Of a stretch of 64,000 nt of DNA, positions 1 to 59,243 are shown piece by piece. Source of the DNA: Bacilli bacterium (GTDB taxonomy: Bacteria > Bacillota_I > Bacilli_A > RF39 > UBA660). The notes under the pieces are model-generated. The model was not told the DNA's origin. It worked only from the letters and a program-made list of their open reading frames with translations, and ran no database searches. The DNA is taken from contig JAGAWU010000049.1 in the NCBI GenBank assembly GCA_017941235.1, forward strand, positions 2,497 to 66,496. Reading direction: 5' to 3'. How positions within the stretch are numbered: the stretch's first letter is position 1; every line of letters begins with the position of its first letter. The position numbers and the translations under genes were made by a program.

Positions 1-12
1 ATAAATAAAGAA

Positions 13-46
13 AATTAAAAAGTTAAAAAACTTTTTAATTTTTTTT
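13..46 (+). terminator. Intrinsic terminator of an off-window upstream + strand gene
   Basis: 10-bp stem AATTAAAAAG (13-22) / CTTTTTAATT (31-40) followed by a T6 run. Confidence 0.6.
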
Positions 47-57
47 AAAAAAAAGGG

Positions 58-86
58 TTGCATAGTATAAAATTATATGCTATGAT
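58..86 (+). promoter_or_regulatory. Sigma-A type promoter
   Basis: TTGCAT (58-63), 17-nt spacer, TATGAT (81-86). No ORF follows it for about 480 nt. Confidence 0.55.
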
Positions 87-92
87 ATATTC

Positions 93-511
93 AGTTAATA
101 GATAGGTATTAACTTAATCAGTTAGAGAATTTTTGATGGTTTGTGAAAATCGTTGAAGTGTAGTTCTCATTCTTGAGTTTAATTATTAATTCTTAATTGG
201 ATTAAGAAGTTAAATTCCACTGATTCAATAATAATTATAGTATTTACAATTTGTAGAAAATATAGTTATTATTCATCTTATTAGCTCAAATATCTCTATC
301 AAGAATGTGTAATCTTTAAGGTGATAGTTCTTGATAAACTATAAACGTATTTGAGTTAATATTTATATACCTGAATTTATCAAGCTATTAACTGGAATAC
401 GTATTTTGTGGAATCTTGATAAGAATTATGTTTGAGTACTGTCATACTTTAATGTAATTTAATGTTATCCACGGAAAAATATATTGTTTGACAGACAATA
501 TATTTTTTTTG
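93..511 (+). ncRNA. Candidate structured non-coding transcript of about 420 nt, family not recognised
   Basis: It lies between the promoter at 58-86 and a strong terminator (AAATATATTGT 477-487 / ACAATATATTT 495-505 plus T-run). The longest reading frames are about 9 codons. Stems: 94-100/107-113, 186-197/201-213, 227-239/261-273 (13 bp), 281-292/348-359 (12 bp), 297-305/328-336 (9 bp), 374-384/415-427. The downstream gene has its own promoter. Confidence 0.4.
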
Positions 512-517
512 TTTTAA

Positions 518-546
518 TTGACTTAATATTTCTTTTTTTATATAAT
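518..546 (+). promoter_or_regulatory. Sigma-A type promoter of the zinc-ribbon membrane protein gene
   Basis: TTGACT (518-523), 17-nt spacer, TATAAT (541-546). It lies downstream of the terminator at 477-510. Confidence 0.6.
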
Positions 547-576
547 TATAATTGTGAAAAATGGGAGGTAGTAAAT

Positions 577-1035
577 ATGAAAAAATGTATAAAATGTGGC
601 TTTGAAGTTGAGGATGATTCATTATTTTGTCATAATTGTGGCTATAGAATGGAAGAGTTTAATAACAATAATGTAAATACGAATATTAAAACTTCAAATA
701 GTAAAACTAGTGGTTTAAGTATAGCTGGTTTTGTAATTAGTATGATTTGTACTTTGTTTGGGGCTAGTATTTTTTTACAATTATCAACAGGAGTTGATAA
801 ATTAAATCAAATGTTACTTGATTATTCTACTGAAGGAGAACAAATAGGAGCTATAATTGGCTTTATAATAGGTTTTACTGCATTTAATTTTGTTCCTGGT
901 ATAGTAGGGGCTATACTTTCTGGAATAGGTATGACTAAAAAGAAAGATGCTATATCTATAATAGGTTTAATACTTAATATTATGTCTGTTTTAGTTTGCA
1001 TTTTTGTATCTTTTTACATTATTATGAATGTTTAG
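577..1035 (+). CDS. Zinc-ribbon membrane protein (N-terminal CxxC...CxxC followed by hydrophobic helices)
   Basis: ATG at 577 is preceded by GGGAGG (563-568). The protein has KCIKCG...FCHNCG followed by hydrophobic segments. The track start at 484 falls inside the terminator and promoter, so I moved the start. Confidence 0.7.
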   Translation: MKKCIKCGFEVEDDSLFCHNCGYRMEEFNNNNVNTNIKTSNSKTSGLSIAGFVISMICTLFGASIFLQLSTGVDKLNQMLLDYSTEGEQIGAIIGFIIGFTAFNFVPGIVGAILSGIGMTKKKDAISIIGLILNIMSVLVCIFVSFYIIMNV

Positions 1036-2385: not shown

Positions 2386-3519
2386 ATGGCATTAATTAAA
2401 GCTTTAACTAGTGCTGCAAGTTCAGCACTTGGTGATCAATTTAAAGAATATGTTACTTGTCCTGAAGTTAACAATAATGTAATTGTTCAACGCGGAGAAG
2501 TTCATCATGGAAGTGGTAATCCTGGAGCATCTGAAGGAATCATTTCTAATGGTAGTGCAATTGTAATACCTGAAGGAATGGCTATGATGATCGTAGATAA
2601 TGGTAAAGTTCAAGAATTCTCTGCTGAACCTGGAACATTTACTTGGGATACAAGTAGTGAACCATCAATCTTTACAGGAGGACTTGGAAAAGGTATTTTA
2701 GATACATTCAAAACTATTGGTAGTCGTTTTACTTTTGGTGGACAAACTGCTAAAGATCAAAGAGTTTATTATATCAATATTAAAACTATACCTGGTATGC
2801 CTTTTGGTTCTCAACAACCTGAAACAATTATGGATTCAGTATATGGTAGTGTTCAAATTACTTATAATGGTAATTTTGATATCAAAGTTGATGATCCACT
2901 TATTTTAGTAAATAATTTTGTTGGAGCTAATGCAAAAGATACATTAACATTTGATGATATTTTCTCATCTGATAGTGGAAATCAATTAAAATTTGATTTT
3001 GCACAAAATGTTAGTGCTGGAATCAGTGATGTTATGACTGAAGAAGGAATATCATTTAGAGAAATTCAAGGTTCAAAAGGAAAAATGGCTATCGTTAAAA
3101 AGATGCAAGATTTACTTGACGAGTCTTGGAGAAGTCAATATGGTATTATAGTTGGAAATGTTACATTACGTATCAATGCTACTGAAGAATCTGCTAAGAA
3201 GATTTCTGATGCTGACATGGAAATTTCTACTAGAAAACGTATGGCTAACGAAATGTCTGAAGTTTACGCTAATAATCCTAATGCAAAAGATACTGAACTT
3301 GTTGATGTTCTAAGAACTGCTGCAGGTAATGAAAATGGTGCAATGATGGGTATTATGGGTGCTACTTTAGGACAAAATGCTACTAATATAGTAGGTGGAG
3401 TTACTGGAGGACCTACTCAAACTGCTGGTAATGCACAAGGTGTTGCTGGTTATTGTTCAAATTGTGGAGCTCCAGCGAGTGGAAACTACTGTTCTAAATG
3501 TGGAACTAAATTACAATAA
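2386..3519 (+). CDS. SPFH-domain protein with C-terminal double zinc ribbon (YdjI / COG4260-like)
   Basis: N-terminus MALIKALTSA...GDQFKEY, a long SPFH-like body, and a C-terminal CSNCG...CSKCG. AGGAGG precedes the ATG. Confidence 0.7.
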   Translation: MALIKALTSAASSALGDQFKEYVTCPEVNNNVIVQRGEVHHGSGNPGASEGIISNGSAIVIPEGMAMMIVDNGKVQEFSAEPGTFTWDTSSEPSIFTGGLGKGILDTFKTIGSRFTFGGQTAKDQRVYYINIKTIPGMPFGSQQPETIMDSVYGSVQITYNGNFDIKVDDPLILVNNFVGANAKDTLTFDDIFSSDSGNQLKFDFAQNVSAGISDVMTEEGISFREIQGSKGKMAIVKKMQDLLDESWRSQYGIIVGNVTLRINATEESAKKISDADMEISTRKRMANEMSEVYANNPNAKDTELVDVLRTAAGNENGAMMGIMGATLGQNATNIVGGVTGGPTQTAGNAQGVAGYCSNCGAPASGNYCSKCGTKLQ

Positions 3520-36337: not shown

Positions 36338-36350
36338 ATTTAGTAATTAT

Positions 36351-36378
36351 AAAGAAGGGGAGTTTTCCCTTCTTTTTA
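36351..36378 (+). terminator. Intrinsic terminator of the HTH gene
   Basis: AGAAGGG (36353-36359) / CCCTTCT (36367-36373) followed by TTTT. Confidence 0.75.
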
Positions 36379-36821
36379 TTATAATATAATATATTATATG
36401 ATTATTTAAATAATAAAATTTATAGTTGTAAATACTAGGACTAAGTGACTAAGTTTTTTTAATTGTATAAGTATATAAATTATAGAAATTAATTTAAATT
36501 AATGAATACTTATTTAATAAATTGATAATTCAATTTTATTGATTTATTTATACTTATTTATATTATATTTATTAGGTATAGATAGTAGTAGAATAGTTTA
36601 TATATATTACTTATATATTATATAATTAATTTATAGAAGTTAACATAATATCAATTATAGGAAATTATATATATGAATAAGTAATTAGGATTTATACTAT
36701 TAATACTTGTATTATTGCTAGTTTTTTTATTTCTAATTTATTAGTATTATTTATATTATATTGTTATACTTTTATTGTTTATTTAATTATGAATATTACT
36801 ATGATCTATTATTTATATGAT

Positions 36822-37250
36822 TAATTTTAAGCGTTCGAATTTATGTTTGGTTATTAATTATCTATCTCAAATTATATATAGTTAAATTTAAAGAATCAAC
36901 TATTCATTTTATGTATGATTCTTTATCTTAAATTGAAGTTAAATTTAAGCAGTTGAAATACTTTTTACTTATTAGTTCATCAGTTCAAATTTAAAGATTA
37001 ATTTTAAGCAATCGAGAATCACTTTTATATACAGTTCATCACCTCAATTTTACTATTTAATTTTACTACTTAATTTTAAAGAATTTAGATTTAGTTTTAT
37101 TGGTGGTTCTTAAGCTCAAATTCGTGTTTATTTTAACAAATCGATTAATTGTATTAAATACCAGTTTTCAACTTAAATTATGGCTTAATTTTGAGCAATC
37201 GAGTTTCTTTTTTATATATGATTGTTTATCTTGATTTAAATTACATATTC
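36822..37250 (+). repeat. Tandem array of 7 diverged units of 54-72 nt (unit starts 36822, 36883, 36940, 36999, 37071, 37132, 37186)
   Basis: Each unit starts with a TTAAWTTTAAGCAATCGA-like sequence, has a CTTTTATATATGATTC-like interior, and ends with a CTCAAATT-like sequence. More decayed copies seem to extend back to about 36490. There is no ORF on either strand. Confidence 0.8.
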
Positions 37251-37281
37251 ATTATATATAATAGATAATATTATTATATAT

Positions 37282-37310
37282 AAAAAAGAGGGTATTACTA
37301 CTCTCTTTTT
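37282..37310. terminator. Bidirectional intrinsic terminator (serves deoB on the - strand)
   Basis: AGAGGGTA (37287-37294) / TACTCTCT (37299-37306), 8 bp with one G-U, flanked by an A5 run and a T4 run. Confidence 0.65.
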
Positions 37311-37319
37311 AAATCTACG

Positions 37320-37343
37320 GTAGGGGACTTCCCCTACTTTTTT
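37320..37343 (+). terminator. + strand-specific intrinsic terminator with no upstream + strand ORF
   Basis: GTAGGGG (37320-37326) / CCCCTAC (37331-37337) followed by T6 on the + strand only. Confidence 0.65.
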
Positions 37344-57742: not shown

Positions 57743-58279
57743 TTACTTTTTTAAAATAACTACTATCTTCTCTCCATATTTTCTACTTTTTACTTCTTTT
57801 AACACTTCTTCATTTTTTATTTTCTTTATGTCATCTGTTTCACATACTATTATTCCATTATCATTTAGTAAATTATACTCACATATTAAATCTAATGATT
57901 TTTCTATTAAATCTCCTTTGTATGGGGGATCTAAAAAAATTATATCGAATTTATATTTGCTTTTTAAATATTCTAATGCTTCTTTATAATCTAAGTTTAA
58001 TACTTCTCTTTCTTCATTAAGCATAGATAAGTTTTCTTTTATTGTTTTAAAACATATTTTATTTTTATCTACAAATATTGCTTCTTTAGCATTCATACTT
58101 AATGCTTCTATACCAAGATTCCCAGATCCTGAAAATAAATCTAGTATAGTGCTACCACTAACTTTATTTTGTATCATTGCAAATAGTGATTCTTTTACTC
58201 TATCCATAGTAGGTCTTGTTCCTTCTATGTCAAAGCCTTTTAATGTTCTTCCTTTATATTTACCTTGTATTATCTTCAT
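57743..58279 (-). CDS. rsmD: 16S rRNA (guanine966-N2)-methyltransferase RsmD (YlbH)
   Basis: RPTMDRVKESLF, LDLFSGSGNLGIEALS and FLDPPY motifs. Confidence 0.9.
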   Translation of the reverse strand: MKIIQGKYKGRTLKGFDIEGTRPTMDRVKESLFAMIQNKVSGSTILDLFSGSGNLGIEALSMNAKEAIFVDKNKICFKTIKENLSMLNEEREVLNLDYKEALEYLKSKYKFDIIFLDPPYKGDLIEKSLDLICEYNLLNDNGIIVCETDDIKKIKNEEVLKEVKSRKYGEKIVVILKK

Positions 58280-58281
58280 AT

Positions 58282-58518
58282 TTACTCCATTATACTTTTT
58301 AATTCTTTATTAATACTTAAAATCTTATAGTTAATTCTATTTTCTAAATGTTTATATTTTATTATTAATTCATTGTTTGAAACATCTTCATTATTTTTTA
58401 TTTTTTTTATAAGAGTCTTATCATTTAATATTTTATTTTGAATTTCTTTAATTTCTATTATATCTTTATCTTTATCTAAACTATTTTTTAAATCATCTAA
58501 TTTAACATATATATTCAT
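58282..58518 (-). CDS. Small coiled-coil protein (possibly a short YlbF/YmcA-like protein)
   Basis: 78-aa Lys/Asn/Ile-rich helical ORF, 3 nt upstream of rsmD, with an AAAGGATGA SD. Confidence 0.5.
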   Translation of the reverse strand: MNIYVKLDDLKNSLDKDKDIIEIKEIQNKILNDKTLIKKIKNNEDVSNNELIIKYKHLENRINYKILSINKELKSIME

Positions 58519-58537
58519 AATATCATCCTTTTATTAA

Positions 58538-58619
58538 AAGAAAAACACTCTAAAGAGAGTGTTCGAAGGTGATGCGCACAAACATCAACCTAGAAATCCT
58601 AAACAATCTTTAGAATTTC
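58538..58619 (-). promoter_or_regulatory. Leader RNA with two hairpins and an intrinsic terminator, in the position of the ylbH leader
   Basis: Minus strand: TTGCAA (58655-58650), 17-nt spacer, TAATAT (58632-58627). A 12-bp hairpin AGAAATTCTAAA/TTTAGGATTTCT and a hairpin GGTTGATG/CATCACC. Terminator AACACTCT-CTTT-AGAGTGTT plus TTTTTCTTTT, about 25 nt before the ATG. Confidence 0.55.
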
Positions 58620-58663
58620 TAATAATATATTACCAAAAAATAACATTTTTTGCAAGTGTTTTT

Positions 58664-58888
58664 TTATTTTTTTAATATATCTAAGAATTCTTTTACTATT
58701 GCAATGTTATTATTCATTTTTTTTAATTTATCTTCTGGTGTTAAATTAAATCTTTTTTTCATCTCATCTTCCATAAATTTTATACTGCTTGGGTCTCTAT
58801 TTAAATAGTTGTACCAATAAGAATTTTCTTTTAAAAACTTTTTTAAATTAGGATTACTGTCTATTTTTATTTTTATATCTTGTCTCAT
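58664..58888 (-). CDS. YlbE-like small protein
   Basis: 74 aa. MRQDIK...NPNLKKFLKENSYWYNYLNRDP resembles the B. subtilis YlbE family. It follows the ylbD-like gene, as in B. subtilis. Confidence 0.55.
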   Translation of the reverse strand: MRQDIKIKIDSNPNLKKFLKENSYWYNYLNRDPSSIKFMEDEMKKRFNLTPEDKLKKMNNNIAIVKEFLDILKK

Positions 58889-58895
58889 AAATTAA

Positions 58896-59243
58896 CTAAT
58901 CTTCAAAGTATTTGTACATTGGCCTTTTTTCATAAGTTTCTTTTGGTACATTTGTTTTTGTGTTATTAAGTGCTAAACCTTCTAAGAGTGCTACTGCCTT
59001 CTGCATACTTTCTATACTGTTTTGTACAGTTTTCATATCTATCTTTTTTATAGTGTCTACTATATCTCCAATTTTTGAGTCACTTGATATTTCTTTAGTG
59101 AAATATTTATTCCAAACACTACTATTTTCACCGTATATATCATATAATTCATATAATTTTTGCCATGTTATTTTATCTTTTAATACACTTTCAGCTAGTT
59201 CTGGATGAAGACGGGCAAATGATTTAAAAGTTTCTTTTGACAT
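58896..59243 (-). CDS. YlbD-like (putative spore coat) protein
   Basis: FKSFARLHPELAESVLKDKITWQKLYELYDIYGE resembles the YlbD family. It is syntenic with ylbE, ylbF and ylbH. Confidence 0.55.
   Translation of the reverse strand: MSKETFKSFARLHPELAESVLKDKITWQKLYELYDIYGENSSVWNKYFTKEISSDSKIGDIVDTIKKIDMKTVQNSIESMQKAVALLEGLALNNTKTNVPKETYEKRPMYKYFED

Follow-up and report, generated by a model that had tools for sequence, protein, structure and literature searches.

The first 576 nucleotides of a 64,000-nt stretch of DNA from an uncultured member of the Bacilli (assembly GCA_017941235.1, contig JAGAWU010000049.1, positions 2,497 to 66,496 of the forward strand; the whole stretch is referred to here as the window) separate a cysteine-desulfurase/PP-loop ATPase operon, whose end lies 16 nt upstream of the window start, from a zinc-ribbon gene at 577-1035. 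A preliminary description of this spacer had reported a promoter, a terminator and several long stems in the place of a gene, raising the question of whether an RNA is encoded there in its own right and, if so, of what kind. All positions are those of the window and refer to the + strand unless otherwise indicated. A structured noncoding RNA (ncRNA), with an inferred transcript of ~418 nt, is predicted at 93-510 from its folding energy (z = -6.3), its homologues and the absence of a conserved open reading frame (ORF). That this is a real, independently transcribed family of structured ncRNAs appears highly probable, and sequence comparison indicates that the family is previously undescribed and is carried by several genera of uncultured, AT-rich, small-genome gut Bacilli. 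The fuller proposal, which joins a new ornate ncRNA family to homodimerization through a palindrome, we regard as somewhat better than an even proposition.

Homologues and selection

Homologous intergenic regions were collected with the proteins encoded on either side of the RNA as queries. The search with the upstream PP-loop protein covered 80 species-representative GTDB genomes or loci from uncultured AT-rich gut metagenome-assembled genomes (labelled 'Bacilli/Tenericutes/Mollicutes'), which we take to be RF39-like; the RNA was present only in the nearest species, 'Bacillales bacterium UBA7476' (L011). The search with the downstream zinc-ribbon protein added three more species with the same synteny at 68-74% identity (L110, L114 and L115) and, at 26-30% identity, three further clades (L121, L124, L127 and L129/L130, the last from NCBI assembly GCA_017525855.1), each with a clear RNA homologue in front of the zinc-ribbon gene. 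A pattern scan of metagenomes (TACGTATTTTGTGGN{20,35}CTGTCA) recovered one true locus (L103) and ten chance matches, the pattern being too specific because the palindrome described below varies, and ten metagenome contigs carried a sequence identical to that of the window RNA. The resulting collection comprised 10 distinct RNA sequences of 338-433 nt from at least four clades of uncultured AT-rich gut Bacilli, at the loci L011 (two copies), L103, L110, L114, L115, L118, L121, L124, L127 and L129/L130.

Three further matches were discarded: the 20.7-bit covariance model (CM) match in L074, which lacked the loop and was spurious, and the nhmmer matches in L229 and L249, which lay inside a phage structural gene and were not homologues of the RNA.

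Within the genus of the window, nucleotide identity was 90-93% for the RNA, 92-93% for yceD, 88-90% for the PP-loop gene, 83% for the DUF7666 gene and 76-80% for the zinc-ribbon gene, while the spacer upstream of the promoter could not be aligned, a comparison which shows purifying selection on the predicted RNA.

Conserved secondary structure

The + strand of 93-511 folded with a minimum free energy (MFE) of -106.8 kcal/mol, against -74.0 +/- 5.2 for dinucleotide shuffles (z = -6.3, with 0/100 as good), and the fold without the terminator gave z = -5.9. In a 13-row alignment, 69 core pairs were paired in 96.9% of the cells, whereas only 43-48% were paired when the partner was slid by 1-3 columns; 18 pairs had changed on both sides, as compared with 2-5 in the slid controls, and none of 500 shuffles reached the observed core pairing values. 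The 3' two-thirds of the molecule were alignable across all clades, and the 5' domain (110-278) was genus-specific. MAFFT left the 3' strand of one outer stem (H6, below) unaligned across clades, so an anchored manual registration was used instead. As the sample is small, we relied on contiguous helices, multiple pair types and the slid controls; on these grounds the comparison shows a conserved secondary structure backed by compensatory changes.

The variable 5' domain is predicted to be closed by two helices of the core. The first is H1, a long-range pairing of AGUUAAUAG (93-101) with CUAUUAACU (385-393), whose 9 bp were invariant in 13/13 sequences and present in the MFE structure. The second is H2, found by alifold, in which GGUAU (105-109) pairs with AUACC (367-371); at this position the other clades have a different helix, AGAUAGU/ACUAUCU, as read from the printed sequences. 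The variable 5' domain (110-278) consists in the MFE structure of a closing helix (116-122/219-225) and hairpins at 134-155, ~174-217 and 227-273, the first of them capped by the GNRA tetraloop GUGA (143-146). The alifold structure of the genus alignment contained compensatory changes in this GNRA hairpin and in the 174-217 hairpin; in L121, L124, L127 and L129 other hairpins take the place of the domain.

The H6 domain (281-359) comprises an outer stem (281-291/349-359), an inner stem (297-306/327-336) and an apical stem (312-315/319-322), with a conserved asymmetric internal loop of GUGUA (307-311) opposite GAUA (323-326), and it took the same shape in each homologue folded alone. Its inner stem covaries at four positions (C-G/U-A, A-U/G-C/G-U at two positions, and G-C/A-U), and its outer stem shows an A-U to U-A change. 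A kink-turn was considered for the internal loop and rejected, its sequence being a misfit to the G-A/A-G consensus. The domain also contains a conserved, Shine-Dalgarno-like GGUGAU (320-325), complementary to the AUCACC of the 16S rRNA 3' tail; a small-peptide reading was dismissed, since the ORFs that follow, read by eye in the H6 sequences, have 2-16 codons and are not conserved.

In helix H7, UUAUCAAG (377-384) is predicted to pair with CUUGAUAA (415-422); 98% of its cells were paired, and a U-A to A-U change was seen in L129/L130. The 5' strand of H7 and the 3' strand of H1 form one uninterrupted 16-nt stretch, UAUCAAGCUAUUAACU, with no linker at all, and the two helices must therefore either stack as an H-type pseudoknot or be mutually exclusive; according to the model proposed here, they would stack on the continuous strand as a pseudoknot. 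The 3' domain is closed in the MFE structure by GUGGA (408-412) with UCCAC (468-472), and the GUGG/CCAC part (408-411/469-472) was kept in 12/13 sequences, the exception being copy b of L103, which has G for U at the second position. Within it lies a hairpin (423-460) made of H9 (423-431/452-460), H10 (435-438/445-448) and the loop CUGUCA (439-444). Pairs changed on both sides numbered four in H9 and three in H10, the latter being all of its alignable pairs, between clades; the loop itself was invariant.

These results bear on the stems listed in the preliminary description, which had asked that they be compared with shuffled sequences of like composition and with relatives. They exceed chance by the z-scores given above, and the homologous regions proved to be conserved in both sequence and structure, with compensatory changes in the stems. 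The stems 281-292/348-359 and 297-305/328-336 were kept in every clade with such changes, and 374-384/415-427 was conserved in its core (377-384/415-422), with a single compensatory change. The helices 227-239/261-273, 186-213 and 116-122/219-225 belong to the MFE structure and were kept within the genus, but are lineage-specific; likewise, the TATCAAG/CTTGATA sequence said to be common to two stems is a feature of this genus, the inner stem having other sequences elsewhere. The local 5' hairpin 94-100/107-113 did not hold up: it is broken in copy b of L011 and absent from the other clades, and is superseded by the invariant long-range helix 93-101/385-393.

Could such stems be chance products of AT-rich intergenic DNA, devoid of function? 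DNA of this composition easily yields long A-U stems and promoter-like hexamers, and our promoter scan returned 11 sites against 11.0 expected. The shuffle z-scores of -5.9 to -6.3, a conservation like that of housekeeping genes beside an unalignable spacer, covariation well beyond that of the slid and shuffled controls, and homologues in other genera render this explanation exceedingly improbable.

A second possibility is that the conserved entity is the DNA itself, either inverted repeats bound by a protein, as in an operator, a recombination site or a replication-related site, or what remains of a mobile element. The locus has a perfect palindrome and several inverted repeats, and it lies ~36 kb from the apparent replication terminus. 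The - strand also folded better than its shuffles (-72.6 kcal/mol, z = -4.8), as any inverted-repeat DNA would; its MFE was, however, 34 kcal/mol weaker than that of the + strand, and many of the conserved pairs are G-U, which become A-C on the other strand. The stems change sequence and still pair, unlike protein-binding sites, and a conserved promoter and terminator frame the region exactly. The rest of the window and ~1 Mb of related loci contained no further copies of the RNA. BLAST searches of phages and plasmids returned nothing except a 42-nt AT-rich match in Clostridium butyricum megaplasmids (E = 0.01), scans of viral sequences (IMG/VR, with a 16-mer and a 15-mer) gave chance matches only, and 50,697 phage records showed no similarity to the RNA beyond chance. 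A DNA-level element is thus a very unlikely account of the locus.

A covarying palindrome and the proposed homodimer

Between the H1 strand and the 3' domain lies a palindrome (394-407, core AAUACGUAUU at 396-405), the proposed self-pairing site. It occurred in the versions AAUACGUAUU, AAUGCGCAUU, GAUGCGCAUU, AAAACGCGCGUUUU and AAAUGUACAUUU, and was perfect in every functional copy, in spite of lengths of 10-14 nt and of variable centres (ACGU/GCGC/GUAC/CGCGCG). Symmetric pairing reached 98.9%, and in three pairs both sides had changed; the symmetry survived three independent double substitutions, one of them in the central dinucleotide (CG to UA). The segment is unpaired in the MFE structure, its adjacent nucleotides cannot pair within one chain and no hairpin is predicted for it; its self-duplex would be worth -12 to -19 kcal/mol. 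From a palindrome that has been rewritten and kept symmetric, together with the lack of an intrachain hairpin, we infer intermolecular self-pairing: the segments of two molecules would pair with each other and join them in a symmetric homodimer. On this covariation, we consider homodimerization through 394-407 reasonably probable.

The same reasoning on palindromes was applied by Kretsch et al. to loops L9.3 of OLE and L21a of GOLLD, for which cryo-EM shows symmetric intermolecular contacts (PMC12286853); in the OLE homodimer, the loop palindrome covaries (GGCC, GAUC, AGCU) (PMC12286853). Self-complementary sequences also lead to symmetric homodimers in the HIV-1 dimerization initiation site (DIS) and in the HYER1/5 ribozymes, whose relatives without a palindrome are monomeric (PMC12990946). 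The latter molecules are unrelated to the RNA described here and have only the pairing principle in common with it.

A further contact is suggested by the loop of H10, since CUGUCA (439-444) is, as read from the sequence, the exact complement of UGACAG (489-494) in the terminator loop; both loops are invariant, and their stems covary. In the proposed model the H10 loop would kiss the terminator loop, within one molecule or between two, which would explain the strong conservation of the terminator hairpin; in that case, the molecule that folds and functions would be the terminated transcript.

In L011 the RNA gene occurs as a tandem duplicate, with a promoter and a terminator on each copy, and likewise in L103, where each copy keeps both elements. 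These UBA7476-like genomes carry the copies at 2537-2961 and 3025-3418 (L011) and at 2152-2583 and 2639-3032 (L103). Copy b has lost hairpin H5, and in place of the internal loop GUGUA/GGUGAUA it has a fully paired stem; its promoter, palindrome, 3' core and terminator are still in place. Copy b of L103 has T-to-G changes within the palindrome and within GUGG. It may be decaying, or may form heterodimers with copy a.

Promoter, terminator and coding potential

The promoter of the RNA gene (58-86), of the sigma-70 type, has a -35 element TTGCAT (58-63), a 17-nt spacer and a -10 element TATGAT (81-86), the latter extended by TG at 78-79. It was 94-97% identical inside the genus, where positions 1-57 could not be aligned, and a design of TTGCAx-17-TGnTAnnAT in equal register was found in 10/10 distinct homologues from all clades. 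The distance from it to the invariant sequence AGUUAAUAG was fixed at 6-7 nt in the same 10 homologues, and from this register and the invariant sequence the 5' end of the RNA is placed at about position 93.

At the other end, an intrinsic terminator (475-510) is formed by an A/U-rich 13-bp stem (475-487/495-507), the loop UUGACAG (488-494) and a tract of eight U that follows the stem and reaches 510. It was conserved in all 10 distinct homologues, with the stem 100% paired, one compensatory C-G to A-U change and a loop invariant in 13/13 sequences; a simple terminator scan missed it because such a scan requires at least three G-C pairs.

The zinc-ribbon gene has a separate predicted promoter outside the RNA (518-546, TTGACT-17-TATAAT), which was the top match of the promoter scan (11/12 positions) and was kept in the genus of the window (L110, L114, L115 and L011). 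In the other clades, a TGn extended -10 (TGnTAnnnT) was read by eye in the spacers between RNA and gene, which is weak evidence in AT-rich DNA.

The longest start-initiated + strand ORFs in 93-510 have 9, 9 and 13 codons, and stop-to-stop frames extend up to 33 codons; among the homologues, no ORF of the RNA region was conserved in frame or length.

The boundaries given in the preliminary description are in agreement with these data: its promoter is present as reported, with the TG in addition, its 11-bp terminator stem (477-505) is contained in the 13-bp stem, and its near-consensus promoter for the next gene is the best of the scan. Its estimate that no frame exceeded about 9 codons was roughly right, apart from the start-initiated ORF of 13 codons. 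Its main proposal, an independent ORF-less structured unit on the + strand, is supported by the conserved promoter and terminator, by the tandem duplication of the whole unit and by the fold. As predicted from these sequences, the locus has the attributes of an independent ncRNA gene, namely a promoter and a terminator of its own, no conserved ORF and a covarying structure.

Linked zinc-ribbon membrane protein genes

The gene that follows the RNA in the window (577-1035) encodes a protein of 152 aa with an N-terminal C4 zinc ribbon (Pfam Zn_Ribbon_1) and about three hydrophobic segments, read as transmembrane helices, and is DUF4190-like. Its homologues (26-74% identity) have the RNA directly upstream in four clades, and paralogues in other clades match Zn-ribbon, DUF4190 and DUF4064 (Pfam, NCBIfam). 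Between one and three genes for zinc-ribbon membrane proteins follow each RNA, and the RNA was directly upstream of such a gene in 4/5 of the distant zinc-ribbon loci examined. The other neighbours vary, with a PP-loop gene, a divergent hypothetical gene or an acyltransferase gene upstream, and yceD-rpmF or an infC operon downstream.

The adjacency to zinc-ribbon genes while other neighbours change suggests a functional partnership between the RNA and the protein, an idea that we put forward tentatively, by analogy, and think somewhat doubtful. In such a partnership, the RNA and the downstream membrane protein or proteins would form a membrane-associated ribonucleoprotein, as OLE does with OapA. 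The most far-reaching version, a self-assembling homodimeric RNA anchored to the membrane by zinc-ribbon proteins as an independent invention of an OLE/OapA-like machine, is speculative and, in our estimation, rather unlikely.

Two or three tandem zinc-ribbon paralogues follow the RNA in L124 (2493-3977), L127 (2506-3983) and L121 (5001-5973). The first paralogue of L124 and L127 has no Pfam match in the contig gene table, yet a direct scan identifies a zinc ribbon; the first ORF after the RNA is therefore itself a zinc-ribbon gene in these loci, which brings the number of paralogues up to three. In the window, the zinc-ribbon gene is followed by a DUF7666 gene, yceD and then rpmF. The window, L115 and L011 all have the DUF7666 gene (1045-1542 in the window) in the interval from the zinc-ribbon gene to yceD; it is gone from L110, where only a 24-nt remnant is left, and from L129. 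This patchy occurrence marks it as an insert, acquired or lost not long ago, in an operon that is otherwise conserved. Each of the distant clades has a tRNA gene after an HD-domain gene, ~0.9-2.4 kb upstream of the RNA (L121 3553-3626, L124 964-1037, L127 1071-1144 and L129 1199-1272), and the shared dnaD-like/HD/tRNA block marks an ancestral neighbourhood.

Independent RNA or leader of the zinc-ribbon genes

Several points weigh against an independent, dimer-forming RNA with a protein partner. The 5' end of the transcript is placed by promoter geometry, H7 has the support of one compensatory event, and covariation gives no proof of the pairing predicted for H1, GUGG/CCAC and the kissing loops, none of which vary. 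When every column was scanned against every other, 226 pairs of columns came out as 'covarying', mostly spurious phylogenetic artefacts, and many of the single compensatory changes are phylogenetically confounded because there are only ~10 distinct sequences in ~4 clades. The distribution looks narrow: neither nhmmer nor the CM detected the RNA within +/-6 kb of the PP-loop gene in the 78 other species, in which the gene order around that gene differs, and one extra metagenome match was obtained, with none in phages, plasmids or viral contigs. One zinc-ribbon homologue, P0031 (L132-L134, after mnmE), has no RNA upstream, the linkage to zinc-ribbon genes is partly an effect of ascertainment because the distant homologues were found through the zinc-ribbon protein, and the binding of the RNA by the zinc ribbon is a supposition. 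Lastly, the RNA lies on the same strand as the zinc-ribbon genes and just upstream of them in every clade, and its 3' end is an intrinsic terminator, as in transcriptional expression platforms.

The last two features are those of the main alternative, in which the RNA would be a giant cis-regulatory leader of the zinc-ribbon gene or genes, that is, a riboswitch or an attenuator that senses a protein, a tRNA or an ion, and transcription from 58-86 would stop at 475-510 or read through according to the signal sensed by the folded RNA. The gap from the RNA to the start codon is 54-68 nt (160 nt in L124), the neighbours on the other side are not conserved, and terminating riboswitches and leaders are likewise structured RNAs that lie upstream of a homologous gene set and end in an intrinsic terminator. 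Other data do not fit such a switch. By inspection of the alignments, which was not a formal search, no conserved anti-terminator or other complement to the 5' strand of the terminator was seen. Expression platforms normally vary freely, whereas the terminator stem-loop is here nearly invariant and its loop complements an internal loop of the RNA, so the conserved fold needs the terminator hairpin to be formed; the terminator is thus part of that fold. The zinc-ribbon gene has a predicted near-consensus promoter of its own downstream in the genus of the window, and a candidate TGn extended -10 elsewhere, and the tandem duplicates keep a promoter for each copy. At 340-430 nt, with a dimerization palindrome, the RNA is far beyond known riboswitches, being 2-4 times larger than known aptamer-platform units. 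Moreover, a constant position upstream of one gene was the first context noted for raiA and OLE as well, and these are separate RNAs. A leader of this kind accordingly seems unlikely to us, and an independently transcribed RNA is the reading that we retain.

Comparison with known RNAs

No gathering-score match was obtained on the 64-kb window with cmscan and all 4227 families of Rfam 15, and searches of window 1-700, L121 4550-4960 and L129 3580-3960 with lax filters at E <= 10 returned only noise (CRISPR-DR40, L13 leader, miRNAs). The models of OLE, ROOL, GOLLD, raiA, RNase P, tmRNA, SRP and 6S were without a match in the window, and at E <= 10 in three homologues, in accordance with the preliminary description, which had recognised neither OLE, ROOL, RNase P, tmRNA, SRP nor 6S; ARAGORN detected no tmRNA, and the core sequences of the RNA were not found in the published literature searched.

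The family might nonetheless be a diverged form of one of these RNAs, in particular an OLE variant of the RF39 clade. Its size is within the range of RNase P or tmRNA, OLE is present in reduced-genome gut lineages such as RF39, whose members are reported to have shortened variants of it, and the OLE gene adjoins a membrane protein gene (PMC11332333). Cmscan, the lax Rfam searches and ARAGORN were all without a match, the neighbouring protein has no CNNM/OapA-like domain (Pfam, NCBIfam), and the tandem duplicate and the genus-level variability of half of the molecule are unlike housekeeping RNAs. We regard a diverged OLE, RNase P, tmRNA, SRP, 6S, ROOL, GOLLD or raiA as highly improbable.

The likeness to OLE lies elsewhere. 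Both are large, intricate bacterial ncRNAs with an obscure biochemistry, and a signal analogous to the covarying palindrome of OLE is present here, a likeness of mechanism and not of homology. The OLE gene is directly beside the gene for a small multi-pass membrane protein, OapA (PMC11332333), in the position taken here by the zinc-ribbon gene. OapA is a CNNM-like protein with DxxxD and four transmembrane segments, unlike the zinc-ribbon/DUF4190-like neighbour of the present RNA. The OLE model (RF01071) is unmatched at this locus (gathering score for the 64-kb window, E <= 10 for the three homologues), OLE has ~610 nt as compared with 340-430 nt, and its palindrome is in a small hairpin loop, whereas that of the new family has 10-14 nt and is in a junction or large loop. 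The distribution of the new family is also far narrower.

ROOL and GOLLD, which form homo-oligomeric RNA nanocages, are likewise ornate large ncRNAs with a variable periphery around a conserved core, and they are held together by intermolecular kissing loops and by same-sequence Watson-Crick contacts that are visible as covariation or conservation (PMC12286853). They differ in having 580-800 nt, in being mostly borne by phages or prophages near tRNA islands, and in giving no CM match, while the RNA described here is chromosomal, among housekeeping genes, with no phage or viral match, and is tied to a membrane protein gene. The raiA motif, a structured Bacillota ncRNA with a fixed place upstream of the raiA gene, was at first regarded as a cis-regulator and is now treated as a free-standing ncRNA. 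It is abundant and its function is obscure (PMC12968392); it has ~200 nt and another neighbour gene, gave no CM match, and is present in >2700 species, in contrast with the handful of genera found here.

To our knowledge, few large and complex bacterial ncRNAs are known besides those of the ribosome, RNase P, tmRNA and SRP, namely OLE, ROOL, GOLLD, raiA and a few others, and cryo-EM has recently shown several large bacterial ncRNAs to be RNA-only homo-oligomers. The locus adds a compact candidate (~340-430 nt) in which the sequence speaks with unusual clarity for a quaternary contact: the palindrome has been recast at least three times with its symmetry kept, next to a core predicted to be pseudoknotted and a terminator hairpin that would be recruited into the fold. 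The linkage to zinc-ribbon genes offers a candidate partner, and the OLE-OapA parallel could illuminate membrane-associated RNAs. The hosts are uncultured and genome-reduced, so that each retained 400 nt presumably counts. The small size of the RNA puts it within reach of in vitro transcription, mass photometry and cryo-EM, and methods of RNA structure prediction could be tried on it blind to good effect.

Other features of the window

Two other regions of the window were noted. A 1-kb ORF-less, extremely AT-rich gap (36338-37343) is located where gene orientation flips, from + up to 36.3 kb to - from 37.3 kb, and the cumulative GC skew peaks there; the gap probably represents the replication terminus. 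Within it lies a degenerate array of ~58-nt repeats (36811-37251) with the common motif TTAATTTTAAGCAATCGAG and no Rfam match; these may serve in termination or recombination, or may be the decayed remains of a repeat element. The second region (58279-58896) is a 617-nt gap without an ORF of at least 100 aa, between two - strand genes.

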